This document shows positions 862 through 61,944 of a stretch of DNA of 64,000 nt, one piece after another (positions within the stretch are counted from its first letter, which is position 1; each line of letters begins with the position of its first letter). The translations under genes were made by a program, and so were the position numbers. The notes under the pieces are model-generated. The model did no database searches. It was given only the letters and a program-made list of their open reading frames with translations, and had not been told where the DNA came from. The stretch comes from Eledone cirrhosa (taxonomy: Eukaryota), in contig OZ024740.1 in NCBI GenBank assembly GCA_964016885.1, positions 211,606,001 through 211,670,000 on the forward strand, given 5' to 3'.

Positions 862-910
<49 letters not shown>

Positions 911-1036
911 AAGTTTTATTTAAATTGTTGGGTTACAACGAGTAAATATTTATAACTGATATAAAAGCACTCAACAAGTATTTGGAGTATATTTACGATA
1001 TTAAATAAATGGAAACTATATTTATAAAACCATATT

Positions 1037-1102
1037 TATTTCATTATATATATTTCAGGGATATCATATTAAAAATATGGTATGCCTTCATCAGACAAAA
1101 TA
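1037..1102 (-). ncRNA. Type I hammerhead ribozyme, family B
   Basis: Mirror image of 1240-1305. Confidence 0.85.
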
Positions 1103-1239
1103 CAATATAAACAGTCTTATAAATAGATAGATTTGACATACCTTACAACTTCAACTTCCATTTAAAAATCAACTTTTTAAATGGAAGTTGAAGTTGTAAG
1201 GTATGTCAAATCTATCTATTTATAAGACTGTTTATATTG

Positions 1240-1305
1240 TATTTTGTCTGATGAAGGCATACCATATTTTTAATATGATATCCCTGAAATATATATAATG
1301 AAATA
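1240..1305 (+). ncRNA. Type I hammerhead ribozyme, family B
   Basis: tattttgt CTGATGA aggcataccatatttttaatatgatatccct GAAA TATATA TA atgaaata; stems I and II pair, stem III palindromic. Confidence 0.85.
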
Positions 1306-1366
1306 AATATGGTTTTATAAATATAGTTTCCATTTATTTAATATCGTATATATATATATATATATA

Positions 1367-2001: not shown

Positions 2002-3009
2002 GAGATAGTCTTATTTAATAATAAGAATAGCAACTGCACACACACTAATAGGGATTGTAACAACAAGAGTAACCCGCACCACAGAAATGACCATAGGAAC
2101 ATTAAAGGAAACAAATCACCAGACATAAAAAACAGTAATAGAAGAAGAAATAATACATTTTTCAACCCTCCTTTAAATTTAAACGTCTCTACCAACCTTC
2201 CTAGGGCTTTCTTCTCACTACTAGATAAACACTTCCCATCCGGCCACAGGTACCACGGCCTTTTAAACAAAAACACTATTAAGATCTCATACTCTACTAC
2301 GCCTAACTTAGCATACCACATAGCTAGTACAAATAAAAGAAAAATTAATTCTTACTTCCAACAAACTAAATCACAACGGCCGATAAACCTTCAAAATAAC
2401 ATTCAAAATGACAGTCAAAGTAACATTATAACAAATAACCGTAATATCAATGGAAATAGTAGTAATAGCACTAGTGTAAACATTAACGCTGCGTACCACA
2501 ACCCGCATAACCATAACCCTATAGCTAACCTCCAAACTTCTACACAGCATAGTAACCGGCAGACTAGCACTCAGAGTAATTGTAACTGTAGATCAAGTAG
2601 AACCTGCCCTTTAGATAAAAAATGCTTAACCAAGGATATCATATACTCATGTACGGTCACAACTAACAGCTCTTCTGAAACCTACATAGGCTCCACTTCT
2701 AACTGCTTCAAAACTAGATACAATTCGCACCTCCACTCTTTCAAAAAACACAGTCTAGCCAACTCCACTTCACTATCTAGCTACATACACTATCTAAAAA
2801 CTAAAAATAAAATATATACACTTAAATGGGAAGTGGTAGGTAGTGCAACATCGTACAAACCACCCGATAAATTTTGTAACCTCTGTCTACTAGAGACCCA
2901 TACTATCATCTTCTCTAAACATAATCTCCTTAATAAAAAATCAGAAGTGTTCGCAAATTGCCAACACCGCTTCCGACACTCGTTCCAAAACTTTAAACCC
3001 TATATATAA
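2002..3009 (+). pseudogene. PLE ORF C-terminus: RT thumb, Asn-rich linker, CxCx5Cx5C zinc finger, GIY-YIG endonuclease (335 codons, no ATG)
   Basis: Frame +1: RRRNNTFFNPPLNLNVSTNL..LDKHFP..NKNTIKISYS..CNCRSSRTCPLDKKCLTKDIIY..TYIGST..FKTRYNSH..CNLCLLE..LLNKKSEVFANCQH*. Confidence 0.92.
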
Positions 3010-4656: not shown

Positions 4657-7600
4657 TGTCCTGGGTATGACATTAAACTACATCCAGTGGCAAGGCTCCA
4701 GTTCGGGAGTTCAGGAGATGTGGGGAATGTGGAGTTACCCCTTAGTTGTCATGACTCCCAGGTCTGCCCTGGCCCGGGGTGGTAGTACATGTTAGGGCTC
4801 CATTTATGGGTTAAATAACTACCTTATTCGAGTGGCGCCGGTAAGGTATTGTCAGCCATTGAAAAGAAATATGGAGAGTCGATCTAACAGCACTAGGGTT
4901 AGAGCCCCTAATTACACTGTCAAGGAGCAGCCTGGTCGTTATGACTCTGATGGCTTAGAGCCACAGAGAGGGCCAGTGGATGATGGATCAGCTGTCTCTG
5001 AGACAAATATAAAGAATGCAGAAGAGCCATCAAAATGGGCACTTTGAATGTGAGGACTATTCGGACGCTGGAGAAGGGAGAGGAGTTGGGACATCTGTTC
5101 GAGGAGAGTGGTATACAGATACTTGCGATCCAAGAATACAGGATTCTACACGATGAGCCCGTGAGGAGTGTGATGATCGGGAAGAAGAGCCAGCTCATCA
5201 CTACATCGGCAGTGAAGAACACAACAAATGCTGCAGTAGGAGGAGTGGGTTTTGTGTTCAGTGCAAAAACCAATCTGTTGGTGAGGGAAATAATGCCTAT
5301 CTCCCCGCGAGTGTTGAGGGTGACCTTCAATGGAAACCCAACACTGACAGTCATCTCAGCCTATAGTCCAACCGAGGGGGACAGTGATGTGAGTGCGGAA
5401 GAGTTCCATGAGGAGGTGTGTAGAGCTGTCAACACCACTCAGGCACACAATATCCTGCTTGTTTTGGAGGACTTCAATGCACATCTGACTAAGGAGGGCA
5501 GTGAAGATCCTTGCTGGTGCTTCCATAACAACACCAACCGAAATGGAAGAATACTGGGAGACACCCTGCTGGAGGCGAACTTGATGGCGACCAACCTAAG
5601 GTTTAGGAAGAATCTGGGGAAGATGTGGACCTACATCTCAGATATGCACCTGTCCAAGTCCCAGATTGATTTCATTCTGGTGAGGAAAAAGTGGCGGAAT
5701 AGTGTTCTGAACACGGAACCATACAGCTATTTCAGTACACTGGGTAGTGACCACCGGCTTGTTATGAGTGAGGTCCGGGTGAGCTTAAGAAAGAGCAAGG
5801 CTCGGCCCCGGAGAACAATCTATGACTGGGGAGCTTTCAAGGAAGATGATAAGCTATAGGAGAGGTTCACAGTGGAAGTGAGAAACAGGTTTAGTGCTCT
5901 GTGTGGAGGGTCAGAGGAGAGAGAGATTGGATGGACTGAGGAGAGTGTGACGAGGAGGTACGGGCACTTCACCAATGCAGTGGCGGAAGCAAGTGAAACC
6001 CTGGTGCCGAGGAAAAAGAACAAAGGGAAGCACGTCAGCTCTGCAAACCCCAAAATGTGTGCAGCCAGAGAACACCTGAAAGCTGCCAAGGACCAATTCT
6101 ATGCTGATCCTACGGAGGAGAGGATGTTGAGGTGATGAGGGAAGAGCTCTGTACCGGTTACACTGAGGTCAGAGAGGAGGCACTGATAGAGAAGATTAGA
6201 AGTGTGGAGAGAGCAGTTGACAGATCTGGATGTAAGGAGAGCTGGATGATCATCAACGAGATCACAGGGAGGAAGAGAAGGTGTTCGAGTCAGATCCAGG
6301 GAACGGGACTCGAGGATAGGAAGAGGAAATGGCTAGACCATTTTAGGACCCTACTAGGAGAGCCACCCTCCACAGCCCAGAGCACTGGGGAGATCAGGCG
6401 GCTGTTTGAGGAACTGGATGTTGAGACAGAGCCCTTCACCAGAGAGGAGCTTCAGAGAGCCAAGAAGAGGATAAAGGAGGGCAAGGCTCATGGAGAAGAT
6501 GGAGTGGCATCAGAGGTGATGAAGAGGTGTGATTTTGATGATAACATCCTGGGGTTCTGTAAAGGGGCACTGGAGAAAGGAGTTTCCCCGAATCAGTGGA
6601 GGATCAGTAACATCGTCCCAGTGCCAAAGAAGGGAGATCTCTCTAACACCAACAACTACCGGGGGATCTCACTGACGTCACTTGTGGCAAAGACCCTCAA
6701 CAGGATGATTCTTAACAGGATCCAGCCTGAGATGGAGAAGAAGCTCAGGGACAACCAGAACGGCTCAGAGAGGGTAGATCAACCACCAGTCACATCCTGA
6801 TGCTGAGGAGGATATTAGAGGGAGCTAGAGCAAAGTGCCTTCCTGCGGTCATGGTTTTCATTGACTTTAGGAAGGCCTTTGATTCTGTGGACCGTTACTG
6901 CCTAATGAAGATCTTACAGGCTTATGGAATCCCCAAGAGGATAGTGGATCTGATATCACTGCTCTACACCAACACCAAAGCCCAAGTCATTACACCTAAT
7001 GGGATGACAGAGTTCTTTGAGATACTGGCTGGAATGCTCCAGGGAGATACATTGGCCCCCTACCTTTTTATCATCGTAGTGGACTATTGTATGCGCCTTG
7101 CACTGGAGAAACACCAGGACTCTGGCTTTACTGTAGCACCGGTTCAGAGCAGGAGAGTTAGGGCGAAAAAGGTATCGGATGCTGAATTTGCCGACGACAT
7201 AGTTTTGGTGACAAATACAGTGAAGGAGGCAGAGGATTTGATGCGGGAGGTTGAGACTGTGTCGATGAGTGTGGGGCTGAAAATGAATGAGACGAAAACA
7301 AAATATCTGGTAGAGAATGTTGAGAAGCCAGAGGGGATCACTAATGTAGGCGGGAAGCCGCTGGAATTGGTTGAAGACTTCCTGTATTTGGGAGCAAAGA
7401 TTGGGAATACGGAAGATGATGTGGTTGAGAGGAAGAGCAAGGCCTGGGCGGCGTGCCACAGCTTGAGATCGGTGTGGAAGTCGGACCTTCGTAGAGACCT
7501 GAAAATCCGCCTCTTCATTGCTGTAGTGGAGTCTGTGCTGCTGTATGGGTCTGAGACTTGGACACTGACCAAGAAACTCACTCAGATGGTGGATGGGTGC

Positions 7601-7950
7601 TACACGAGAATGCTGAGGATGGCTCTGAACATTAATCAGTATACACTGAGGATGAAAAACTCAGAGCTGTATGGGAGCATCCCAAAAGTCAGCTCAAAAG
7701 TGACACAGAGGAGACTGAGGATAGCTGGACATGCTCACCGACATCCAGAGTTGACATTGCACTCAGTGCTCCTTTGGGAGCCCCTACATGGACACACTAG
7801 AAGAGGAAGACCAAGGTTAACGTATGTTGATGCCCTAAAGACAGACACTGGTCTGTTGGAGACGCAGGACATGGCAGCGATAATGAGGGACAGAGACCGC
7901 TGGAGAGAACTCGTCCATGGATCTCGGGAATTTTACCCACCTTAGATAGA
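4657..7950 (+). mobile_element. Near full-length RTE-group LINE (APE + RT) in (TA)n
   Basis: APE motifs GTLNVRT, IQE, SAYSPT, DFNAH, IDFI, SDH; RT motifs NYRGISL, FIDFRKAFDSV, QGDTLAPYLF, FADD; C-terminal RGRPR. Confidence 0.93.
5035..7945 (+). pseudogene. Disrupted APE-RT ORF
   Basis: Stop at 5857-5859 and frameshifts near 6130 and 6765 split it into four track ORFs. Confidence 0.9.
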
Positions 7951-13565: not shown

Positions 13566-13916
13566 TAAGTCGAAGATATACTCGGTAGGGTTGTTGGTAG
13601 TTTAGGAAATAGACACCGTCGGGAATCCTGCCGAAAGTCCGGAAATACAACATGAGTAATCTCATAGATACGTGTAGAAAGACGTCACACCCTTCTCACT
13701 ATCAGATTACATAACTATGCAATCTCTTAGCATTCAACAGGTTTTTACACATACTAAACTATATCCTTGGCTCCTTCATTTGTCTTCATTCTTTTAACAC
13801 TTTACATGCTCTTCCCTCTCATCTTTTGGATTGTTGACAATATTATACATAAGTACTGTGTCTAAGTATTGTGTCTATACATGTGTATGTGTGTGTATGT
13901 ATGTGTGTGTATGTGT

Positions 13917-13952
<36 letters not shown>

Positions 13953-13987
13953 CGTATTTATTTGTCTGCGCACACATTTGCTGTTAA

Positions 13988-14018
<31 letters not shown>

Positions 14019-14060
14019 AATACAATCATATATATATATATATGCGTGTGTGTCAACTGC

Positions 14061-14092
<32 letters not shown>

Positions 14093-14375
14093 CGCACACA
14101 CATACACACACATACACACACATACACACACACTCACACACACACGCACACCCACCCACACACACATATATAATATATATATACTATGTTAAGATATCAA
14201 TACATATTTAATATGTATGATGATCATGTTTCTCAATAAATAAGCTCACTGGAGCTTGGTTCAGGGCAACAATAATTCAAATTTAAAAGATATATATATA
14301 TAGAGAAAGAGTAATATATTGTTTGAGTAACACAGTATTTTGTATACACACACACATATATATATATAGTAAATA

Positions 14376-23050: not shown

Positions 23051-23620
23051 CTGTATGCTTAATTAAAAGCATTTCGAAGACCTTATGCTATTGTTTTAGA
23101 GTAGTGACAGACTCACTTACTTTAATTTTCAGCAAACAGGGGAGATAAAGCTGACAGGGACCTGTTTCGCATTTATTGATGCTTATCAAAGCCAACTACT
23201 CCTCCTGTTGGCTGAAATCGTGGATGTTGGGTTCTTATAGAATTCTAGTAAATAATCAGGAACTGATTATACAGAGCGGTTGTCAGTCAAGCAGAAATAG
23301 AAAATTAGAATTGGTGCTCTGAAATAGCTATATATATATATATGAATGTATATATAGTGTATTTTGCAATACACTGTATGCTTAATTAAAAGCATTTCGA
23401 AGACCTTATGCTATTGTTAAGCATCAAAAAATGCGAAACAGGGCCCTGTCAGTTTTATCTCCCCTGTTTGCTGAAAATTAAAGTAAGTGAGTCTGTCACT
23501 ACTCTAAAACAATAGCATAAGGTCTTCGAAATGCTTTTAATTAAGCATACAGTGTATTGCAAAATACACTATATATACATTCATATATATATATAGCTAT
23601 TTCAGAGCACAAATTCTAAT
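23051..23620. mobile_element. Retrozyme-like HHR element: 323-bp tandem unit plus inverted copy
   Basis: 23051-23095 repeats at 23374-23418; 23419-23620 is inverted relative to the unit. Confidence 0.8.
23149..23193 (-). ncRNA. Type I hammerhead with U3:A8 covariant core and GUC cleavage triplet
   Basis: ggct TTGATAA gcat caataa atgc GAAA CAGGTCCCTG TC agct. Confidence 0.8.
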
Positions 23621-26600
23621 ACACATGTATTACACACACATACACATGTATGTATTACACATACATACACACACATGTATGTATTACATATACATACACA
23701 TGTATGTATTACACATACATACACATATGTATTACACATACATACACATATATGTAGTACACATACATACACATGTATGTATTACACATACATACATATG
23801 CATGTATTACACATACATACACATATGTGTTACACATACACACACATATATGTATTACACATACATATATGTATTACACATACATACATATATATGTATT
23901 ACACATACATACACATATATGTATTACACATACATACATATATATGTGAAGATAGACATAGAATATTCGAAAATATTCTGTATGTTTATAATAAACATTT
24001 TGAAGACCTAATCGCTATAGAATAGAATACGTCACGTATACACATACATACACATATATGTATTACACATACACACAAGTATGTATTACACATACATACA
24101 TATGTATGTATTACACATACATACGCATGTATGTATTACACATACATACACATGTATGTATTACGCATACATATGCAATATATGTATTACACATACATAC
24201 ACACATGTATGTATTACACATACATGTACATACATGTATTACACATATATACACACATGTATGTATTACACATAAATACACAATACATGTATTACACATA
24301 CATACACACATATGTATTACACATACATACACACATGTATTACACATATATGTATTACACACACATACACGTATATGTATTACACATACACACACATATA
24401 TGTATTACAATAGATACACACATGTATTACACATATATGTATTACACATACATACACATATATGTATTACACATACATACACATATATGTATTACACATA
24501 CATACAGACACATGTATGTATTACACATACATACACATGTATGTATTACACATACATACACACATATGTATTACACATACATACACACATACATACACAC
24601 ATATGTATTACACATACATACACACATATGTATTACACATACATACACATATGTGTATTACACATACATACACATGTGTATTACACATACATACACATGT
24701 ATGTATTACACATACATACACATATATGTATTACACATACATACACACGTATGTATTACACATACATACACACATATGTATTACACATACATACACATAT
24801 GTGTATTACACATACATGCACATATGTGTATTACACATGCATACACATGTATGTATTACACATACATACACACATATGTATAACACATACATAGACACAT
24901 GTGTATTACACATACATACACACATGTGTATTACACATACATACACACATATGTATTACACATACAAACACACATATGTATTACACATACATACACATAT
25001 ATGTATTACACATACATACACACATATGTGTATTACACATACATACACACATATGTATTACACATACATACACACATATGTATTACACATACATACACAC
25101 ATGTGTATTACACATACATACACACATATGTATTACACATACATACACACATATGTATTACACATACATACACACGTATGTATTACACATACATACACAC
25201 ATATGTATTACACATACATACACATATGTGTATTACACATACATACACACATATGTATTACACATACATACAGATATGTGTATTACACATACATACACAC
25301 ATATGTATTACACATACATACACATATATGTATTACACATACATACACACATATGTATTACACATACATACACATATGTGTATTACACATACATACACTT
25401 ATGTGTATTACACATACATACACACATATGTATTACACATACATACACACGTATGTATTACACATACATACACACATATGTATTACACATACATACACAT
25501 ATGTGTATTACACATACATACACACATATGTATTACACATACATACACACGTATGTATTACACATACATACACACGTATGTATTACACATACATACATAT
25601 GTATTACACATACATACACACATATGTATTACACATACATACACATATGTGTATTACACATACATACACATGTATGTATTACACATACATACACATATAT
25701 GTATTACACATACATACACACGTATGTATTACACATACATACACACATATGTATTACACATACATACACATATGTGTATTACACATACATGCACATATGT
25801 GTATTACACATACATACACATGTATGTATTACACATACATACACACATGTGTATTACACATACATACACACGTATGTTTAACACATACATACACACATAT
25901 GTATAACACATACATAGACACATGTGTATTACACATACATACACACATGTGTATTACACATACATACACACATATGTATTACACATACAAACACACATAT
26001 GTATTACACATACATACACATATATGTATTACACATACATACACACATATGTGTATTACACATACATACACACATATGTATTACACATACATACACACAT
26101 ATGTATTACACATACATACACACATATGTATTACACATACATACACACATGTGTATTACACATACATACACACATATGTATTACACATACATACACACAT
26201 ATGTATTACACATACATACACACGTATGTATTACACATACATACACACATATGTATTACACATACATACACATATGTGTATTACACATACATACACACAT
26301 ATGTATTACACATACATACAGATATGTGTATTACACATACATACACACATATGTATTACACATACATACACATATATGTATTACACATACATACACACAT
26401 ATGTATTACACATACATACACATATGTGTATTACACATACATACACTTATGTGTATTACACATACATACACACATATGTATTACACATACATACACACGT
26501 ATGTATTACACATACATACACACATATGTATTACACATACATACACATATGTGTATTACACATACATACACACATATGTATTACACATACATACACACGT

Positions 26601-29600
26601 ATGTATTACACATACATACACACGTATGTATTACACATACATACATATGTATTACACATACATACACACATATGTATTACACATACATACACATATGTGT
26701 ATTACACATACATACACATGTATGTATTACACATACATACATAGGTATTACACATACATACAGACATATGTATTACACATATATACACATATGTGTATTA
26801 CACATACATACACACATATGTATTACACATACATACACACATGTGTATTACACATACATACACACATATGTATTACACATACATACACACATGTATTACA
26901 CATACATACACACGTATGTATTACACATACATACACCTATGTGTATTACACATACATACACGTGTATGTATTACAATACATACACCCATATGTATTACAC
27001 ATACATACACACATATGTATTACACATACATACACACATGTATTACACATACATACACATGTATGTATTACACATACATACACACATATGTATTACACAT
27101 ACATACACATATGTCTATTACACATACATACACATACATGTATTACACATACATACACACATATGTATTACACATACATACACATATGTGTATTACACAT
27201 ACATACACACATATGTATTACAATACATACACATATGTGTATTACACATACACACATATGTATTACACATACATACACACATATGTATTACACATACATA
27301 CACACATATGTATTACACATACATACACACATATGTATTACATATACATACACACGTATGTATTACACATACATACACACATATGTATTACACATACATA
27401 CACATATATGTATTACACATACATACACACATATGTATTACACATACATACACATGTATGTATTACACATACATACACACATATGTATTACACATACATA
27501 CACATGTGTATTACACATCCATACACACATGTATTACACATACATACACATATATGTATTACACATACATACACACATATGTATTACACATACATACACA
27601 TATGTGTATTACACATACATACACATGTATGTATTACACATACATACACATGTATGTATTACACATACATACACATATGTGTATTACACATACATACACA
27701 CATATGTATTACACATACATACACATATATGTATTACACATACATACACACATATGTATTACACATAGATACACATATGTGTATTACACATACATACACA
27801 TATGTGTATTACACATACATACACACGTATGTATTACACATACATACACACGTATGTATTACAGATACATACACACATATGTATTACACATACATACACA
27901 TATGTGTATTACACATACATACACACATATGTATTACACATACATACACACGTATGTATTACACATACATACAAACATATGTATTACACATACATACATA
28001 TATGTGTATTACACATACATACACATGTATGTATTACACATACATACACACATATGTATTACACATACATACACATATATGTATTACACATACATACACA
28101 CATATATATTTACACATACATACACATATGTGTATTACACATACATACACACATATGTATTACACATACATACACATATGTGTATTACACATACATACAC
28201 ACATATGTATTACACATACATACACACATATGTAGTACACATACATACACACATGTGTATTACACATACATACACACATATGTATTACACATACATACAC
28301 ACATATGTATTACACATACATACACACGTATGTATTACACATACATACACATATGTGTATTACACATACATACACATGTATGTATTACACATACATACAC
28401 ACATGTGTATTACACATACATACACATATACGTATTACACATACATACACACAGATGTATTACACATACATACACATATGTGTATTACACATACATACAC
28501 ATATGTGTATTACACATACATACACATGTATGTATTACACATACATACACATGTATGTATTACACATACATACACATGTATGTATTACACATACATACAC
28601 ACATATGTATTACACATACATACACATATATGTATTACACATACATACACACATGTATTACACATACATACACACATATGTATTACACATACATACACAT
28701 GTATGTATTACACATAGATACACACATATGTATTACACATACATACACATATGTGTATTACACATCCATACACACATATGTATTACACATACATCCACAT
28801 ATATATATTACACATACATACACACATATGTATTACACATACATACACATATGTGTATTACACATACATACACACATATGTATTACACATACATACACAC
28901 ATATGTATTACACATACATACACACATATGTATTACACATACATAAACACATGTGTATTACACATACATACACACATATGTATTACACATACATACACAC
29001 ATATGTATTACACATACATACACACGTATGTATTACACATACATACACATATGTGTATTACACATACATACACATGTATGTATTACACATACATACACAC
29101 ATATGTATTACACATACATACACATATATCTATTACACATACATACACACATATGTATTACACATACATACACATACATGTATTACACATACATACACAC
29201 ATATGTATTACACATACATACACACATATGTATTACACATACATACACACATGTGTATTACACATACATAGACATCCATACACACATATGTATTACACAT
29301 ACATACACATATATGTATTACACATACATACACACATATGTGTTACACATACATACACACATATGTATTACACATACATACACATATGTGTATTACACAT
29401 ACATACACATGTATGTATTACACATCCATACACATGTATGTATTACACATACATACACACATATGTATTACACATACATACACACATATGTATTACACAT
29501 ACATACACACATATGTATTACACATACATACACATATGTATTACACATACATACATACATACACATGTATGTATTACACATACATACACACATATGTATT

Positions 29601-29862
29601 ACACATACATACACATGTATGTATTACACATACATACACACGTATGTATTACACATACATACACATATGTGTATTACACATACATACACACATATGTATT
29701 ACACATACATACACACATGTGTATTACACATACATACACACATATCTATTACACATACATACACACATGTGTATTACACATACACACACACATATGTATT
29801 ACACATACATACACATGTATGTGTATTACACATACATACACATGTATGTATTACACATACAC
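23621..29862. repeat. ~25-bp satellite (tattacacatacatacacacatatg), ~6.2 kb, roughly 250 units
   Basis: Directly visible; short unique interruption ~23945-24035. Confidence 0.97.
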
Positions 29863-29975
29863 AGTAATTCATCTTGGTACTTTAATATATATGAATATAT
29901 TTATAAAGATACAAGTTATGTAAAGCACACGATATACTTACGTACGTAAATGTGTGTGCGTGTAGGTATGCATGT

Positions 29976-30013
<38 letters not shown>

Positions 30014-30620: not shown

Positions 30621-32278
30621 ATTCTTTATTTGCCGCAAGGGCGCAGAAAGATGGGGACAAATACTGAGTGGGGAGTTTACATACATGCGTGTAAAAAAAT
30701 AAGATAGATAGATAGATAGGTCGGTAGATAGCTAGCTAGACAGACAGATAGATAGATAGATACATTTCTTTATTAGCCATAGGGGCACAAAAGAAGGGGA
30801 CAAATACAAATGGGGAGTTTACATACAGGTATATGAAAATAAAACTATTAATAAAATAACAAATGACAATTGAAATCCTCAATAGGGGGAGGTGTTACAC
30901 AAGGGTTGAACACACCCCAATAGATAGATAGATATGTTTCTTTATTAGCCACAGGGGCACAAAAGAAGGGGACAAATACAAAGGGGGAAGTTTACATACA
31001 ATAAAAACGTGTAAAATACTATCACAAATGCAGTTTAAAAATTAATCGATTTTCCCCAATAGGAGGAGACATTTCATACGCCCGAAAAAATGTGCAACCC
31101 TCATCTCCAGGAGTACGAAGAGTTTGTACCCCTTTCCTCTCTTCCTCTTTTCCCTCAAACCTACAGGCTGGCCATTCTCGCCACTTTCACCCACCTTTCA
31201 TAAATAGATAAATTTCTTTATTAGCCACAAGGGCACAAAAGAAGGGGACAAATACAAATGGGGAGTTTACATACAGGTATATGAAAATAAAACTATTAAT
31301 AAAATAACAAATAACAATTGAAATCCCCAATAGGGGGAGGTGTTACACAAGGGTTGAACACACCCCGAAAAAATGTACAGGAGCACCAACAGTGAGTACT
31401 CCCTTCCTCTCTTCCTCTTTTTCCTCAACCTACAGGCTTATATAGACAGAAGGCCCAACCACTCGGCCATCTTTGCCACATTCACCCACCTTTTATAAAA
31501 TGTGCTGGGGTACAGCACCTCTCTCTCCATCCTGATTCTTCTTCAAAAATGATATTTGAAAAAAACGAATCAGTTGCTCGCCGGAGAGAAAGGTATCTGA
31601 CCTCAGCCCTTTTAACCTCGTCCACCATATAACCTCTTTCACCATAGCCATAACACATAGGGAAACCGCCTCTCCCTCGTTTTTGAAGGAGGGTGGCGGT
31701 TTGATCATGTCAATGGACTCGGTGGTCAACTGGATTGGTCCCACCCGCGACAGAAGTCGTTCTACATAGCCCCACAGGTCGGTAACGCCCGGGCAGTGTA
31801 CAAATGCGTGCGCGACGGTTTCCTCGTCGCGCACGCATCTCGGACAGATCTTTTTCGAAGGGCGCCCGTGTCTGTAGAGCTTGTCTCGAACTGGTAGAGC
31901 TCCTCGGTAGCACTGCCAGGCCAGGGACTTTTGGAAGTTGTCCATTGGTCGCGGGCGGAAGGTCCTACCGAACAGACTGGCCAGTTCGTCCTCCTCTACG
32001 CCTAGAGTTTCTCCGAGCGTGTCGTCGCACTTGCTGCGGACCAACCCTCTATAGAATGTCGAAGTGGAGTCTCCACTGATCGCCGGGTCCGTTTGCCAGA
32101 GGTCTGTGAGCGCCTGAACACATTCGATGTGCCAGTCGCCCATTTTCCTCGGTCTTTGCTTGACCCAGGACTGCAGCTCGGTCAGCGAGACGAGTTGTGG
32201 GCAGGCTCGCCTCACGAACGGGGCCCACACCGGTTGTCTGGTGAGGAATACGTGAAGATGCCGCAGCCTGAGCGCAGA
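30621..32278 (-). mobile_element. Stack of four 5'-truncated Tx1/L1-clade LINE 3' ends
   Basis: 3' end ttctttattagccac..gggcacaaaagaaggggacaaatac repeated near 30621, 30765, 30937, 31213; ORF 31493-32230 with zf-RVT CPRC..EETVAHAFVHC. Confidence 0.88.
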
Positions 32279-32396
32279 TAGATAGATAGATATTCATATA
32301 AGTGTACATATGGAAAAGAAACAGTTGATTTCATCTATAGTTTTTTTAACTTTCTCTTTTAATCTTTTTTTTTCTATCTTACAGTCTCCTTCACGA

Positions 32397-34758: not shown

Positions 34759-34878
<120 letters not shown>

Positions 34879-34916
34879 ATTAAATAAATGGAAAACTATA
34901 TTTATAAAACCATATT

Positions 34917-34982
34917 TATTTCATTATATATATTTCGGGGATATCATATTAACAATATGCTATGCCTTCATCAGACAAAATA
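34917..34982 (-). ncRNA. Type I hammerhead, family B
   Basis: Mirror of 35160-35225. Confidence 0.8.
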
Positions 34983-35159
34983 TAATATAAACAGTTTTAT
35001 AGATAAATATAGATAAATATAGATAAATATATTCGACATACCGTAATAAACATCAACTTCATTTGAAGAGGTTCACTCTAGCAGAGTGAACCTCTTCAAA
35101 TGAAGTTGATGTTTATTACGGTATGTCGAATATATTTATCTATAAAACTGTTTATATTA

Positions 35160-35225
35160 TATTTTGTCTGATGAAGGCATAGCATATTGTTAATATGATA
35201 TCCCCGAAATATATATAATGAAATA
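35160..35225 (+). ncRNA. Type I hammerhead, family B
   Basis: tattttgt CTGATGA ... GAAA TATATA TA atgaaata. Confidence 0.83.
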
Positions 35226-35353
35226 AATATGGTTTTATAAATATAGTTTTCCATTTATTTAATATTGTAAATATACTCCAAGTATTTGTCGAGTGCTTTT
35301 ATATCAGTTATAAATATTTACTAGTTGTAACCCAACAATTTTAAATATAACTT

Positions 35354-35445
<92 letters not shown>

Positions 35446-35975: not shown

Positions 35976-36476
<501 letters not shown>

Positions 36477-38011: not shown

Positions 38012-38143
38012 ATGTAGAAATTCTATTTAAATTGTTGGGATACAACAAGCAAATATTTTTATAACTGATATAAAGCACTCAACAAATCATTGGAGTAAAA
38101 ATACGATATTAACAAATGGAAACTATATTTATAAAACCATATT

Positions 38144-38208
38144 TATTTCATTATACATATTTCAAGGACACCAAGTTAAATTATGGTGTGCTTTCTTCAG
38201 ATAAAATA
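38144..38208 (-). ncRNA. Type I hammerhead in solo family B copy (~38015-38265)
   Basis: tattttat CTGAAGA aagcacacca..tggtgtcctt GAAA TATGTA TA atgaaata. Confidence 0.83.
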
Positions 38209-38311
38209 TAATATAGAGCAGTTTTATAAATAAATATTGACATACCCTTAAAGAATGCGACTATTACTATATATATATATAATATATTATATAAATAAAT
38301 ATATATAATAT

Positions 38312-45519: not shown

Positions 45520-47815
45520 AGAATGACTTGAGGAGCTTGGTCTATGATGTTTCAGCAGAGGTCTTTGGCTCTGTCATAAGATAACACAAGGGCTGGTTTG
45601 AGAATGACCAGGAGGTCAAGGCTCTGCTGGACAGAAAACAAAAGGCAGTCGCTGTAGTTCTTAAAGGTGGTAGCTCTGTTGGTGACAATTATGAGCGTTA
45701 CAGACAGGTAAAGAAGGAGGTGTAGGTGAAACTTAGAGCGATGCAAAATACCTGGTGAAGCAACAAAGCAGATGAAGTTCAAGCAGCATCTGATGGCAAC
45801 AATGTGAAACTGCTGCACACTCTACTCAGAGAGATGTATGGCCCTTTCAGCTCACCAGTGGCACCTTGAGATCGAAAGATGGCAAGCAGTTACTGCTCGA
45901 TCCAAAAGACATACTCGACAGATAGAGAGATCACTTTGATGAGCTCTTAAACCAGCCATCCCAGATTGATGATGATTTCTTTTACTCCATTCCTATTGAA
46001 CCAGTGAAGCATGAGATGGCTGATTTACCTTCTCTTACAGAGGTGACTTCTGCTGTGCATAAGCTGAACTGTGGTAAGTTTCTTGGTGTGGATTGTCTGA
46101 GTGCAGAGGTTTTGAAGTGCGGTGGTGAAAACTTAATGCAGCTCCTGACTGACCTCATGAAAAAGGTGTGGGAAGATGAGAGTGTCCCACAAGATTGGAA
46201 GGATGCGCTCATGGTGATTCTCCATAAAGGAAAGGGTGGGAAAGACAAATGTGGTAATTATCGTGGCATATCACTTCTTTCAGTAGTTGTTAAAGTCATG
46301 TGTTGAATTTTGATGGATAGATTGATCTCAAAGGTTGCTCTGAATGTGTTACCTGGGTTGCAGTGTGGGTTTAGAAACGAAAGAGGAACGGTGGATATGA
46401 TCTTTTCTGTTCGGCAGCTGCAAGAAAAGTGTATCAAAAAATGTATGGACTTTTACCAGGTCTTTGTTGACTTGACAAAGGTCTTAGACACCGTAAATCA
46501 TACTGTGTTGTGGAAAATTTTGAAAAAGCTTGGCTGCCCTCCAAAGTTTGTCAAAATTCTGCGTCTTTTTCATGATGACATGAAGGCTTGGATCAGTATT
46601 GGCAGTAGCATCTCTGAACCAATATCAGTTGAAAATGGAATGAAGCAGGGGGACATTCCAGCTCCAACTTTGTTTTCCTTATATTTTACAATAGTGTTTC
46701 TCATGGCAATCAGGAAAAATTGTTTGCATGGAGTTTACATCAAGTATCACACTTCATGCAGGTTGTTCAACATCAGGTGCTTTGGTGCAAGCATGAAGGT
46801 ATTAACATCTATAATTCGAGAGTTTTTGTATGCAGATGACTGCGATCTTTTTGCACATTCACATTATGAACTCTTTTTCTGAAGCTTGCAGCGCTTTTGG
46901 CCTTACAATAAGCTTGGAAAAGACTGCACCTGGGTAAGATTACACTACACCAAGTGTGTACAGAAAGAGGTTAAAAGTTGCTGACAAGTTTGTTTACCTT
47001 GGTAGTACGTTGAACAATTCATGCATACTTGACAATGAGATATCCTTAAGAATCAAGAAAGTCAGTCATGCTTTTGGATGGCTGAATGAATGTTTATAGT
47101 CCAGACGAGGTATCACCATTGAAACCAAGGTAAAAGTGTATCTGACTTGTGTCGTCTCCTCTTTGTTTTATGCTTGTGAAACATGGGCCACATACAGAAA
47201 GCGCCACAAGGAACTAGAGAGGTTTCACCAACAATCTCTTTGTAAGATACTTGGGGTGCAGTCGAAAATGCTTGTCAGGAGTAGGTGCATGAGTATATAA
47301 AGCATGATCTTCCAGCATCGGTTGAGGTGGTGCGGTCATGTGGCCCGGATATCTGATGATTGTATTCCAAAGCGACTTCCCTACGGCGAACTGTGCGAAG
47401 GAAGGCAACCACCACACAAACCAAAAATGTGGTACCGGGACTGAGTCAGGAGCACCTTGGCTTGCGTCGGAATTTCATCTGATGAATGGGAGAAAATGTC
47501 TGAGGAGCATGTGAAGTAGAGACGTTTGATCAAGCCAGGAAGTGAATACTTTGAAACTCGTTGAAGAGAACACCTAACACTGAAAAGGAGGGTGAGGAAA
47601 CAGGGACTGTTCTGAACTCCCTGATGTTGAGCAGCATCTGGTTTGCCAGCACTGTGGTTGAGTCTGCCTGAGCAAAACTGGTTTGATTAACATGAACAAA
47701 GTCATATCAGTAGACCTCATGTTGATTATGATCTGAAAAGGTGTAAGGAGTGTGGTAAGGAATGTGCAAGCATGGGAGGTCTTAAAAGACATATGAGAAC
47801 ATACAGTCAGAAGCA
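45520..47815 (+). mobile_element. Decayed RTE/BovB-like LINE
   Basis: VPQDWKDA, NYRGISLLS, QCGFR, DMIFSVRQLQEK, FVDLTK, KQGD, LYADD; many stops; C2H2 remnants at the 3' end. Confidence 0.9.
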
Positions 47816-53377: not shown

Positions 53378-53447
53378 TATTTTATTATACGTATTTCGAA
53401 TACAAAATCATCCTGGGACAGATGTTGTGTTCTCTTCAGATAAAAAA
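53378..53447 (-). ncRNA. Type I hammerhead, diverged family A relative (~53345-53540)
   Basis: ttttat CTGAAGA gaacacaacatc..gatgattttgtattc GAAA TACGTA TA ataaaa. Confidence 0.85.
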
Positions 53448-53535: not shown

Positions 53536-53616
<81 letters not shown>

Positions 53617-53619
53617 CAG

Positions 53620-53954
53620 AAGGGATATTCAATTTGTTGGTAATGTTTATATAACTAATTCAGAGCACTCTACAGGTTTTCTGGAGTATAATATACAATG
53701 ATATTAAATAAATGGAAACTATATTTATCAAACCATATTTATTCTATTATATATATTTCAAGGGTCCCAAAATTTTGGTACGCTATCATCAGATAAAATA
53801 CGAAGTGTGTTTTATAAATTTTGACATAACCAAAGAGAATATACCTTAACGGTTCAAGTTATCTGATGATAGCGTACCAAAATTTTGGTACCCTTGAAAT
53901 ATATATAATAGAATAAATATGGTTTTATAAATATAGTTTCCATTTATTTAATAT

Positions 53955-53961
<7 letters not shown>
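53620..53961. mobile_element. Diverged family B palindrome with HHRs at 53740-53800(-) and 53859-53915(+)
   Basis: CTGATGA tagcgtaccaaaattttggtaccctt GAAA TATATA TA atagaata. Confidence 0.85.
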
Positions 53962-54466: not shown

Positions 54467-54599
54467 GTGTATGCGTGTGTGTGTATATATGTATTTATGT
54501 GTGTGGTTATCTGCGTGTCTTCATTTGTATTCTTGCATGCTTGAATATGTTTATATTTACACTGGACACATACATGCATGTATCTATATGTAGTATTGC

Positions 54600-56308
54600 C
54601 CTCTCTCCTCCCTTCTGTACGTATTGACTCTCGAGCCTTTACTGAGGAAGTTGGAGTTGTTGCAGGGTATCCCCCTGGAACCAGGATTGAGCAAAGCTGT
54701 GTCGGCCTACGCCGATGACGTAACAGTAATGGTATCGACCGACTCGGAGATCGAGGCGATCGGTACCTTACTGGAGGATTACGAAAGGTTGTCAGGAGCG
54801 AAACTGAACCGGGAAAAATCCATCGGGCTGCAACTCGGAACGTGGAGAGGCAGACCGATGCCTCCCGACGGTGTCGTCGGACACTGGACGGAGGGCCCGG
54901 TAAAGTTGCTTGGGGTCTGGTTTGGACCGGACCTCCAGGTGGAAAAGAACTGGGACGAGGTTACGAACAAGGTTTTTGCACTAACCCAGAAATGGGCCAA
55001 GTGTAAGCTGTCCCTAAAAGGTCGAGCGGAGGTGGCGAACATTTACATAGCGTCCGTCACTTACTACCGCCTGACTGTCGTGCCTTGCCCTAAGGAAACA
55101 CTCACCACCATGGAACGCATGCTCTTCCAATTTCTTTGGAAGAAACGCCCTCCTATGGTGAGAAGATCCATCTGCTGCCAACAACCTTCGAAAGGATGGC
55201 TGGGGATGCCGTGGTTGATGATGCGTAGGCACGCATTAAGGCTACGGCACCTACAGGTATTCCTCACTGGTCAACCGGTGTGGGCTCCGTTCGTGAAACG
55301 AGCCTTTCCGAGACTCGTCTCGCTCACCGAGCTGCAGTCCTTGGTCAAGCAAAGATCCGGAAAACTGGGAGACTGGCACACTGAGTGTGCCCAGGCGCTC
55401 AGGGCTCTCTGGCAAGCGAGCCCGGCCATCGGTGGAGAATCCACCTCATCATTTTATAGAGGGCTGGTGGCTAGCAGGGGCGATGACACCCTTGGAGAGT
55501 CGCTGGACATGGAAGAGGACGAACTGGCCAGCCTGTTCGGTAGGACTTTCGGCCCGGGACCAATGGACAACTTCCAGAAGTCACTAGCCTGGCAGTGCTA
55601 CCGGGGGGGCTCTACCCGTTCGAGAGAGGCTCTACAGACACGGGCGCCCGGGCAGGGATCCCTCGAAAAAGATTTGCCCTAGATGCGTGCGTCACGAAGA
55701 AACGGTTGCGCACGCATTGGTGCAATGTCCGGGCGTGGCTGATCTGTGGGGCTACGCCGAACGACTGCTGTCGCGTGTGGCGCCGATTCGATTGACCGCC
55801 GAGTCCGTGGTGACAATCAAGCCGCCTCCCCTCTTCACAAAGGAAGCAAAGGCGGTTTTTCTGTGCGTAATAGCCATGTTGAAAGAGGTTGTTTGGTGGA
55901 CACGATTGAAAGGTCTGAGGTCAGGCAACTTCCTCTCTGGCCATAGTCTGGTCTACTTCTTCCGATATCACTTCGGAAGAAGGATAAGAATGGAGAGAGA
56001 GGTGCTTGGCCACAGGCAGTTTTATGAAAGGTGGGTGATAGTGGCGAGAATGGCTCGTGTAAATGGGCTTTCTCTGTATACCATCCTGTAGGTAAAGAAG
56101 TGAAGGAGAGGGGAGCACCTTCTCCATGTGCTCCCCGGGCAAAGGATTGCACACTTTTTCGGGGGTGTGTGCAACCCCCATCACGTCCCCTCCCTTTTGA
56201 GGTTGTTTTCGATTATTTTCATTTTATACCCTTTTTACTCGGTGTTATGTAAACTCCCCCTTTGTATTTGTCCCTTCTTTTTATGCCTTTATGGTAAATA
56301 AATAAATA
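54600..56308 (+). mobile_element. 5'-truncated Tx1/L1-clade LINE with 15-bp TSD
   Basis: PLSSLLYVLTLEPLL, AYADDVTV, KLLGVWF, LSLKGR, zf-RVT; frameshift in G7 run ~55605; TSD tatatgtagtattgc at 54585-54599 / 56309-56323. Confidence 0.93.
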
Positions 56309-57409: not shown

Positions 57410-57745
57410 ATATTGTTATACTTGGGGAGGGTCGTATTGTTGTAATAATATTGCTAGAAATAATAACAGAACACACTCACTGTTTGGTTGGTTTTCGCTT
57501 CTGTATCTTTTATATCTCCACAGTTAATTCATTTGGTCCTCAATGTTTATCATTGACTGACCAACGGTAAAAAATACAGATATAATATAGATATTTGACC
57601 GTTGGTCAGTCAATGATAAACATTGAGGACCAAATGAATTAACTGTGGAGATATAAAAGATACAGAAGCGAAAACGAACCAAACAGTGAGTGTGTTCTTA
57701 TTATTTCTGGCATATTATTACAACAATATGACCCTCCCCAAGTAT

Positions 57746-57752: not shown

Positions 57753-57801
<49 letters not shown>

Positions 57802-57804
<3 letters not shown>

Positions 57805-58199
57805 AAAGTTCTATTTAAAATTGTTGGGATACAACAAGTAAATATTTTTATAACTGATATAAAGCACTCGACAAGTATTTGGAGTAGATATACGATATTA
57901 ATAAATGGAAACTATATTTATAAAACCATATTTATTTCATTATACATATTTCAGGAATACCAAATTAAATTATGGTATGCCTTCATCAGACAAAATACAA
58001 TATATAACAGTTTTACAAATAAGCTTTGTTCCAAAAACAATGGTTGCATTTTAATAGGGTACGTCAAAGCTTATTTGTAAAACTGTTATATATTGTATTT
58101 TGTCTGATGAAGGCATACCATAATTTAATTTGGTATCCCTGAAATATGTATAATGAAATAAATATGGTTTTATAAATATAGTTTCCATTTATTAATATC

Positions 58200-58202
<3 letters not shown>
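57802..58202. mobile_element. Family B palindrome with HHRs at 57933-57997(-) and 58096-58160(+)
   Basis: tattttgt CTGATGA aggcatacca..tggtatccct GAAA TATGTA TA atgaaata; spacer 58029-58064. Confidence 0.9.
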
Positions 58203-58245
<43 letters not shown>

Positions 58246-58248
<3 letters not shown>

Positions 58249-58649
58249 TTCTATTTAAATTGTTGGGATACAACAAGCAAATATTTTTATAACTGATATA
58301 AAGCACTCAACAAATTATTGGAGTAAAGATATGATATATTAACAAATGGAAACTATATTTATAAAACCATATTTATTTCATTGTACATATTTCAAGGACA
58401 CCAAGTCAAATTATGGTGCGCTTTCATCAGATAAAATATAATATAGATCAGTTTTATAAATAAATATTGACATACCCTTAAAGAATGCGACCATTTCTGT
58501 TGGAAGCTCCCGGATAGTGGGGTTATTAAATTTAAGGGTATGTCAATATTTATTTATAAAACTGATCTATATTATATTTTATCTGATGAAAGCGCACCAT
58601 AATTTGACTTGGTGTCCTTGAAATATGTATAATGAAATAAATATGATTT

Positions 58650-58657
<8 letters not shown>
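58246..58657. mobile_element. Family B palindrome with HHRs at 58374-58438(-, U16.1>C) and 58575-58639(+)
   Basis: tattttat CTGATGA aagcgcacca..tggtgtcctt GAAA TATGTA TA atgaaata. Confidence 0.9.
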
Positions 58658-61276: not shown

Positions 61277-61395
61277 GTATATATATATATATGTATATAT
61301 ATGTATATATATATATATATATAATGTGTGTGTATATATATATGTATATATATATGATATTAAATAAATGGAAACTATATTTATAAAACCATATT

Positions 61396-61461
61396 TATTT
61401 CGTTATATATATCTCAGGGATATCATATTAACAATATGTTATGCCTTCTTCAGACAAAATA
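61396..61461 (-). ncRNA. Family B hammerhead, mutated (GAAA>GAGA), in solo copy ~61355-61512
   Basis: Homology to 1037-1102. Confidence 0.65.
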
Positions 61462-61944
61462 CAATATAAACAGTCTTATAAATAAATAGATACGACATAC
61501 CTTTCAATCACCTTGCATTTGGGGGATCTTCTGAAACTAACAAAGTCAATATATACATACATATATATATATATATAAATATATAAGTGCGTGTGTGCGT
61601 GTGTGCGGTTGCAAATTATTTGTATTTATATTGTTGAATTCATTTAGACTTAACGTTTACTATGTATGGTTCGGTAGCTCCCCGAGGAGTCATATGGGGG
61701 CCTTATTGACATACGGTGTTACAAGGGCATTTTAAGAACTGAGGGTCCCCATCTCTCGCCAAGTTTGAACAGATTTTTCTCAGGTAAAGAAAAAGCGTGA
61801 GAGAAAGAAAGAGTTTTTATCGACCTTGAATGAATGAAAGGCAAAGTGGAACTTAGAGTGGAGAGAGCCGAAACGAATGCCACAAAGCACTCTATCCGAC
61901 GTATTAACTACTCTGCCAATTCCTCGCTTCAAAATTTACTATGG

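Follow-up and report, generated by a model that had tools for sequence, protein, structure and literature searches.

Palindromes in the window

The DNA analysed here (the window) is a stretch of 64,000 nt on contig C1 of the 3.0-Gb genome of Eledone cirrhosa. A BLAST search of the whole window with arm 908–1172 as the query revealed five head-to-head pairs and two solo copies of family B (Table 1). In all five pairs the hammerhead cores face outward, as had been described in an earlier note on this DNA, from which the solo tailed copy was absent. In element coordinates, with the outer full end e taken as 0 and the internal site s as -89, the tailed arm ends at e and the tail-less arm at s. The last element base at s was found at 1346, 34875, 53959 and 58200, as well as at 61354 in a solo copy, and is followed by (TA)n each time. 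The shared internal end site of the earlier note thus stands, but the positions given for it there (1348, 34873, 53961, 58202 and 61355) include ambiguous TA; the copy at 58246, the short arm of which ends about 25 nt short of s, had been kept apart from the s ends in that note as well. The centres are variable, as claimed, but the supposed loops mostly represent additional 5' sequence present in one arm, or else short filler; in the first palindrome the tail-less arm is the longer one (-269 versus -261 in the tailed arm). One arm of the second palindrome contains a 20-nt tandem duplication, and hairpin copy 1 of the third has an inner CAG/CTG stem. Hairpin copy 2, lying 9 nt 3' of e, is present only in longer-than-unit copies elsewhere in the genome.

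Table 1. Family B copies in the window and the parts of the first palindrome (element positions relative to e).
Feature	Position	Strand	Remarks
Tailed arm, first palindrome (L094)	907..1168	-	element -261..0; 3' end at 907 adjoins (TA)n
89-nt tail (s to e)	907..995	-	missing in the opposite arm
Hairpin motif copy 1	967..988	-	ACTC-inner stem-TT-GAGT-GC; 8 nt 3' of s
Minimal type I hammerhead motif, left arm	1037..1102	-	candidate, from sequence; CUGAUGA, stem II, GAAA, palindromic stem III, UA-A
Centre junction, first palindrome	1166..1168	.	3-nt microhomology AAA common to both arms
Tail-less arm, first palindrome	1166..1346	+	about -269..-89; ends at s, then (TA)n
Hammerhead motif, right arm	1240..1305	+	candidate, as in the left arm
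Second palindrome	34875..35356	.	tail-less arm minus (s at 34875), tailed arm plus; 3-nt centre
Solo tailed copy	38018..38260	-	BLAST
Third palindrome, diverged subfamily	53613..53959	.	tailed arm minus, tail-less arm plus (s at 53959)
Fourth palindrome	57801..58200	.	tailed arm minus, tail-less arm plus (s at 58200)
Fifth palindrome	58246..58656	.	adjoins the fourth within a TA run; short arm ends about 25 nt before s
Solo tail-less copy	61354..61520	-	ends at s

The window copies represent subfamilies that are 80–100% alike in BLAST. A comparison of arm-to-arm with copy-to-copy divergence, as proposed in the earlier note, gave near-identical arms within one copy and up to 20% difference between pairs. 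Each arm holds a candidate type I hammerhead, the motif being read by eye, and minimal type I hammerheads of this kind are described from Penelope-like elements (PLEs) in the available text of PMC4209133. The core and stems are supported by a stem II that covaries across the subfamilies. Rfam gave no hammerhead match at 1176–1350 and, among the 150 matches listed for the whole window, only sub-threshold microRNA-like ones; minimum-energy folding did not recover the hammerhead fold (z 0.03) and recovered the hairpins in part only. Because neither approach recovers them fully, the hammerhead and the hairpins rest on motif conservation and covariation. A microRNA hairpin was rejected as the identity of the palindromes. 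At 57513–57654 and 13899–14108 there are further perfect inverted repeats of short length that have no relation to family B; Rfam returned them as sub-threshold microRNA-like hairpins.

Family C, a second hammerhead PLE family, is found in the window at 488–850 and 36059–36350, with the same asymmetric palindromes and hairpin motif, and a related hammerhead copy ends at 53439. The C-terminal part of the ORF of another Hydra-type PLE, with the CxCx5C linker and endonuclease motifs seen by eye, occupies 2002–3009; it has no Pfam match, and some 1.6 kb of unique sequence separate it from the TA run that follows. The window further contains a satellite of about 6.5 kb with a 25-nt period and a strong strand skew (23500–30000) and fragments of LINE-type retrotransposons at 5002–7945, 31496–32293, 46307–46879 and 54594–56088 (Pfam: endonuclease, RT and zf-RVT).

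The parent element

PLEs are the group of retroelements closest to telomerase. Family B is not a stand-alone element; it forms the end that bears the hammerhead (pLTR) in a young and autonomous Hydra-type PLE of 3.9 kb. Some genomic copies extend 5' through a UTR of about 1.5 kb into an ORF with FDITMG, YRDD and endonuclease-type motifs, and copy L033 has the textbook layout of an inverted tail-less arm, a 5' pLTR running into the ORF, the UTR and a 3' pLTR ending at e. The genome holds 42 exact pLTR–ORF junctions, 40 of which were retrieved, with ORFs of 705–742 aa in nine. The two arms of a pair differ at 39 of 5583 sites, hence family B is young. Both a partial tandem forming pLTRs and an inverted 5'-truncated copy are present in family B; an inverted 5'-truncated copy with a one-sided tail is a known architecture in the portions available of PMC8557442 and PMC3846280.

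The 742-aa ORF of family B is single, and its YRDD and YVG motifs were recognized by eye. In its nearest Atlas clusters (0.95–0.98) some of the members carry the families GIY-YIG, RVT_1 and HTH_animal, and Pfam and PDB sequence searches of the ORF gave nothing significant. The DKG motif is changed to DKT (KSDKTNN in family B; D, K and T invariant in alignment A1), the CxCx5C linker reads CNCRDRSKC, and CxxC (CDLC) and CxH (CRH) lie near the C-terminus. The N-terminal RWK motif is RWR in family B and RWK in its relative L114, the R and W being invariant; a CCHH motif, a CxC domain and an IFD were not evident in the ORF by eye. Of 47 pairs, 42 have (TA)n next to both outer ends; two of the five exceptions are parsing offsets.

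These motifs, together with the hammerhead and the TA targets, match the definition of the Hydra clade as far as given in the available text of Craig et al. 2021 (PMC8557442) and place the element, on sequence grounds, presumably in that clade. Shared with the clade as described there are the single ORF with a C-terminal endonuclease, DKT, CxCx5C, CxxC, CxH, RW(R) and the hammerhead, as well as (TA)n targets, partial tandems, an inverted 5'-truncated copy and a one-ended tail. The same text describes Hydra elements as generally shorter than 3 kb, with a tail of 30–40 bp ascribed to endonuclease resolution; family B differs in its 3.9-kb unit (about 3.87 kb, above the tendency of the clade owing to the long 3' UTR), its 1.5-kb 3' UTR and its 89-nt tail. 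The target-primed retrotransposition of a PLE, the TA-like template at the internal site and the likeness to inverted pLTRs, all put forward in the earlier note, are borne out.

A MITE or DNA transposon was rejected, the arms being unequal and belonging to an RT element, and so was a retrozyme array, as none of 32 close pairs is tandem and the arms continue into the UTR and ORF. Animal (non-LTR) retrozymes, according to the portions available of 10.64898/2026.07.22.740005, are likewise short and non-coding, carry a type I hammerhead and are related to PLE pLTRs; however, they form head-to-tail tandem repeats, whereas family B consists of truncated arms of an autonomous element. One full-length family B copy (L318, G000:C18:30118365-30128355) differs by 162 private changes, of which 151, spread over about 2 kb, are A-to-G on the sense strand; it looks like an ADAR-hyperedited RNA that was later reverse transcribed.

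Fold-back chimeras in long reads do produce palindromes, but an assembly or library artefact of that kind is hardly credible here: the two arms of a pair differ at the sites counted above, the flanks on the two sides are unlike, and the ends are fixed and asymmetric. Moreover, raw Illumina reads of three samples (RAD-seq, from another study) contain TA loose ends at s in their thousands, as well as joints between opposite strands at several centres, including -274/-273 in two samples. The palindromes are confirmed as real.

Ends, hairpins and arm lengths

Ends were surveyed with a 42-nt hammerhead string, for which the genome has 522 exact matches as compared with 0 for the reversed control. 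The 100 matches listed fall into 68 clusters with 32 close pairs, all of them head-to-head; no tandem or tail-to-tail close pair occurs among the matches listed. Ends were counted in the 67 clusters on contigs C1 and C2 together with their flanks, the single row on C3 being left out, and 40 loci from an earlier DNA search were excluded from these statistics owing to their bias to tailed arms of at least 261 nt. In these 67 loci, 47 pairs combine an e with an s end and a single pair is s/s, e/e pairs being absent; a solo copy ends at s in 10 loci and at e in 8, two of the latter having an inverted arm that is interrupted, and one locus is complex, with e and s. Two-armed insertions are therefore the majority (48/67 loci), and the ends of adjacent pairs are complementary in 47/48; the s/s pair (L104) has an additional tailed piece, which makes s and e its outer ends. 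Longer-than-unit copies, 16 of 40 being classifiable, were divided into nine with a long e arm and an inverted s arm, six with a long s arm and a short inverted e arm and one e/e copy (the tailed/tailed L323), i.e. complementary ends in 15/16.

The same was seen in two other families, for each of which 30 loci were taken and double counts removed: two-armed insertions have e and s ends in 10/10 cases in family C (a 41-nt string of which has 6328 exact matches in the genome) and 10/10 in family D (577 matches), two family C rows with the inverted arm running into the ORF having been left unclassed. Across the three families one tailed and one tail-less end were found in 82 of 84 two-armed insertions, whichever arm is longer. 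The fixed outer ends proposed in the earlier note, as opposed to random ones, hence recur across the census as the two ends e and s.

At three loci (L082, L104 and L116) the s end shows a local duplication or a restart, with a repeated TTTAATATCG stretch or the order s, TA run and tailed piece, which suggests re-priming or slippage at the start site. In family D the tailed ends (L241, L249, L254, L257, L264 and others) are often followed by long (CA)n runs, the internal junction copies have (CA)3–4 only, and the tail-less ends are without (CA)n; a short template copied repeatedly at the start site, or compound microsatellite targets, are possible causes.

Both s and e lie approximately 8–20 nt 5' of a duplicated bulged-hairpin motif (RYTC...TN-GARY-RC), the sequence after e in the 5' pLTR repeating that after s. 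Each repeat consists, in this order, of a TA-like tract of 8–9 nt, RCTC, a short inner stem-loop, a 2-nt bulge with T as the first base, GAGY and GC; copy 1 has A-T as its outer pair and copy 2 has G-C, and in the element RNA sequence both copies are positioned between the hammerhead and the start codon. A genome search for the two-copy pattern gave 35 matches (control, 0), many of them lying in tandem repeats that are unrelated. Junction copies from families C, D and E were among them, D and E being discovered through this motif search itself. The duplicated hairpin with compensatory pairs (A-T/G-C and C-G/T-A) is present in families B, C, D, E and F, the variants GTTC/GAAC representing the second compensatory pair. 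Family F (L121), which was found independently of the motif, has two copies, with ends about 8 and 20 nt 5' of them. No motif was detected with a relaxed descriptor in the divergent Hydra-type families L087 and L114 of this genome. Three divergent Hydra-type families with long ORFs (L087:2518, L114 and L121:3450) were met by chance in flanks.

Metagenome contigs were scanned with an N-terminal alignment, yielding 15 loci of related PLEs. With the descriptor derived from this genome only, 7 of these showed one copy; with the relaxed descriptor, 8 of the 15, representing about five independent families, showed two separate copies, 3 showed one copy and 4 showed none. Two copies occurred in at most 0.7% of shuffles under the relaxed descriptor, a value that is optimistic because this descriptor was written after inspection of the metagenome loci. 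Antisense matches numbered 0 in 22 regions. Element ends just 5' of a hairpin were seen in families C, D and F and also at L268, the 3' pLTR of which terminates with TA shortly before copy 2, and at L272, where the 3' pLTR terminates shortly before a copy-1-like motif. The two copies are spaced 54–99 nt apart, and the tail length follows from this spacing. It may be supposed that the hairpins position the RT at s and e. In the earlier note s was taken for a place where RT stops; however, s has the same downstream hairpin motif as e and looks like a second RT start site rather than a stop.

Concerning the arms, those of a pair overlap in 43 of 47 cases. Of the 47 pairs, 32 have the tail-less arm extending further 5' and 14 the tailed arm, one pair being equal (sign test, p = 0.011); a second parse of the same pairs gave 30, 14 and 3, respectively. 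The excess is more than 50 nt for the tail-less arm in 13 pairs (up to 3.6 kb) and for the tailed arm in seven. In the four pairs with non-overlapping arms (L097, L120, L132 and L142) the tailed arm is the tail alone and its partner measures up to 3.2 kb. Whenever the tailed arm passes -300 the tail-less arm does so, too (10/10), i.e. a long tailed arm with a short tail-less one was found in 0/10; the converse fails in six cases, and both arms are short in 31 pairs (p = 1.5e-6). The arms of a pair share source alleles, which by itself fits one RNA, two sibling RNAs or self-copying alike; together with the coupling of arm lengths it favours, short of proof, one template molecule.

At the centres there is either microhomology of 0–7 nt or a short filler, which in many cases is a copy of element sequence close by, with the reservation that some fillers are parser errors and that junctions near -240 or within simple repeats are placed imprecisely. 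Microhomology of at least 1 nt was present at 14 of 19 insertion-free junctions as compared with 48% expected, a figure of little weight as the parser overcalls insertions. No two of the 47 junctions are identical, and a palindromic master copied as a unit was rejected for that reason.

Short arms accumulate at -275 to -250. Of 117 arms, 20 have their end at -275..-273, but only 7 have it at -276..-300. The A of a TCACT string falls on position -275 and is preceded, at a distance of 23 nt, by TATAA. This initiator-like site may be the transcription start; if so, the short palindromes would be run-off cDNAs from the 5' end of an mRNA in which both hairpins are present. The numbers at the edge (-275..-268) and inside it (-267..-240) are 26:5 for tail-less and 9:16 for tailed arms (Fisher, p = 0.0003), as would be expected if the RT starting at s leads.

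These lengths bear on the fold-back of the earlier note, by which a tailed cDNA is copied back on itself to an internal TA. Such self-copying would leave the tail-less arm always contained in the tailed one, and it is not supported, given the 32 pairs with a longer tail-less arm, the four non-overlapping pairs and the 10/67 tail-less solos. A modified version, in which central deletions of the unstable palindrome afterwards made the arms unequal, would account for the tailed/tail-less pairing, the shared alleles and the coupled lengths; the 14 pairs with a longer tailed arm and the short inverted repeats at -269..-247, where many centres lie, also speak for it. Central deletions may blur lengths, yet they should favour neither arm: with the tail-less arm never longer before erosion, unbiased erosion would make it the longer one in at most half of the unequal pairs (observed, 32/46), and the tail-less arms attain the 5' edge more often. 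The non-overlapping pairs, the tail-less solos and the six longer-than-unit tail-less arms with shorter tailed inverted arms contradict the model for those copies unless kilobase deletions are invoked, and s is followed by a separate copy of the motif found after e. All this considered, fold-back followed by erosion is improbable.

Proposed priming of the two arms

The pairing of a long with a short end and the motif after both ends make it likely that two RTs start from the two cut ends of the target. The palindromes are insertions of a Hydra-type PLE into (TA)n, probably produced by programmed twin priming on one RNA. In this process the GIY-YIG endonuclease would cut both strands of (TA)n, one target end would be extended from e by an RT positioned by hairpin 2, giving the tailed arm, and the other from s by a second RT positioned by hairpin 1, giving the tail-less arm. 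Both RTs would probably work on the same RNA, the trailing one displacing the leading cDNA. They would stop variably, most often at the RNA 5' end (-275), which would give the short palindromes of family B, and on tandem or circular templates they could continue for kilobases. The cDNA 3' ends would then anneal through 0–7 nt of microhomology or short templated filler and be extended over each other, this being second-strand synthesis, and a single successful priming would leave a solo copy. The chances are about even for the stronger proposal that twin priming is obligate and RNA-encoded, with the two hairpins docking RTs on one transcript and the two cDNAs completing each other; the tail would then be the distance between the docking sites and the inverted pLTR the second cDNA.

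In the available text on L1 twin or dual priming (PMC2837659) both target nicks also prime cDNA and head-to-head arms are joined mid-way; however, the second priming falls there on an internal site by chance, the arms are free of overlap and duplications of the target occur, whereas in family B the second site is fixed, nearly all paired arms overlap and most loci are two-armed. Owing to this overlap, unlike in L1, the one-RNA version needs strand displacement, which is assumed. Other points that count against twin priming are the tailed/tailed copy L323, the 14 pairs in which the tailed arm is the longer and the Hydra-type families and metagenome loci with no motif or a single one. An alternative is dual priming on two separate RNAs, which an asymmetric protein dimer would hold and of which one would be primed at e and the other at s; this would explain overlapping arms simply and make strand displacement unnecessary; a PLE protein dimer is predicted in the portions available of PMC11167929, and a few segregating sites are discordant between arms (L084, L105, L287 and L292). 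The discordant sites are, however, few as compared with the many common ones, and two RNAs alone leave the complementary ends and the coupling of lengths unexplained, so that this alternative appears unlikely, though less so than fold-back with erosion.

An experimental parallel is the green anole Poseidon protein studied in vitro by Frangieh et al. 2024 (PMC11167929), which, in the text available, cleaves and extends both strands, with two internal RT start sites bounding the tail. Family B shares with it two RT starts that bound the tail, an AT-rich target and an upstream hammerhead. The clade is different, the Poseidon starts lie inside the ORF, whereas those of family B lie upstream of the start codon, and a single AC-rich stem-loop in Poseidon contrasts with two motif copies in family B. 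The Poseidon start site is alike on top and bottom strands and has no target homology, whereas the start tracts of family B are TA-like. The portions available of that paper leave the two start sites unconnected to inverted arms.

The rotifer Penelope of Arkhipova et al. 2013 (PMC3846280, in the portions available) resembles family B in an inverted pLTR that is shorter than the direct one and in a TCACT initiator-like site; its optional 31-bp tail and the palindromes at the inverted junction are comparable as well. That account invokes self-priming on antisense RNA and deals with few copies, without an end census. Self-priming on an antisense transcript, being published for exactly such a head-to-head architecture, applies to family B in principle, and inverted copies could drive antisense transcription. 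Nevertheless, it gives no reason for two ends each placed 5' of a sense-strand motif that lacks antisense matches in the 22 regions, it does not account for the complementary ends or for the near-absence of true hairpin centres, and the later in vitro work in PMC11167929, as far as available, points to internal initiation on sense RNA; it is very improbable, standing below fold-back with erosion and above an artefact.

A search of open-licence PubMed Central and bioRxiv, with older reviews and Repbase reports outside its scope, found neither twin priming for PLE inverted arms nor the pairing rule or the duplicated hairpin, and the latter two are not mentioned for the Hydra clade in the available text of PMC8557442. 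The same text names the origin of the tandem and inverted structures of PLEs and of their tail as an open question, and second-strand synthesis is left open in the portions available of PMC11167929. Family B, a young family with hundreds of near-identical copies, provides a pairing rule and a candidate cis element, the duplicated hairpin, that is kept in relatives from other organisms. The hairpin pair makes the mechanism experimentally approachable, as breaking or moving one hairpin should cause one type of end to be lost or shifted. If twin priming holds true, the two start sites seen in vitro would be tied to the genomic architecture of PLEs.
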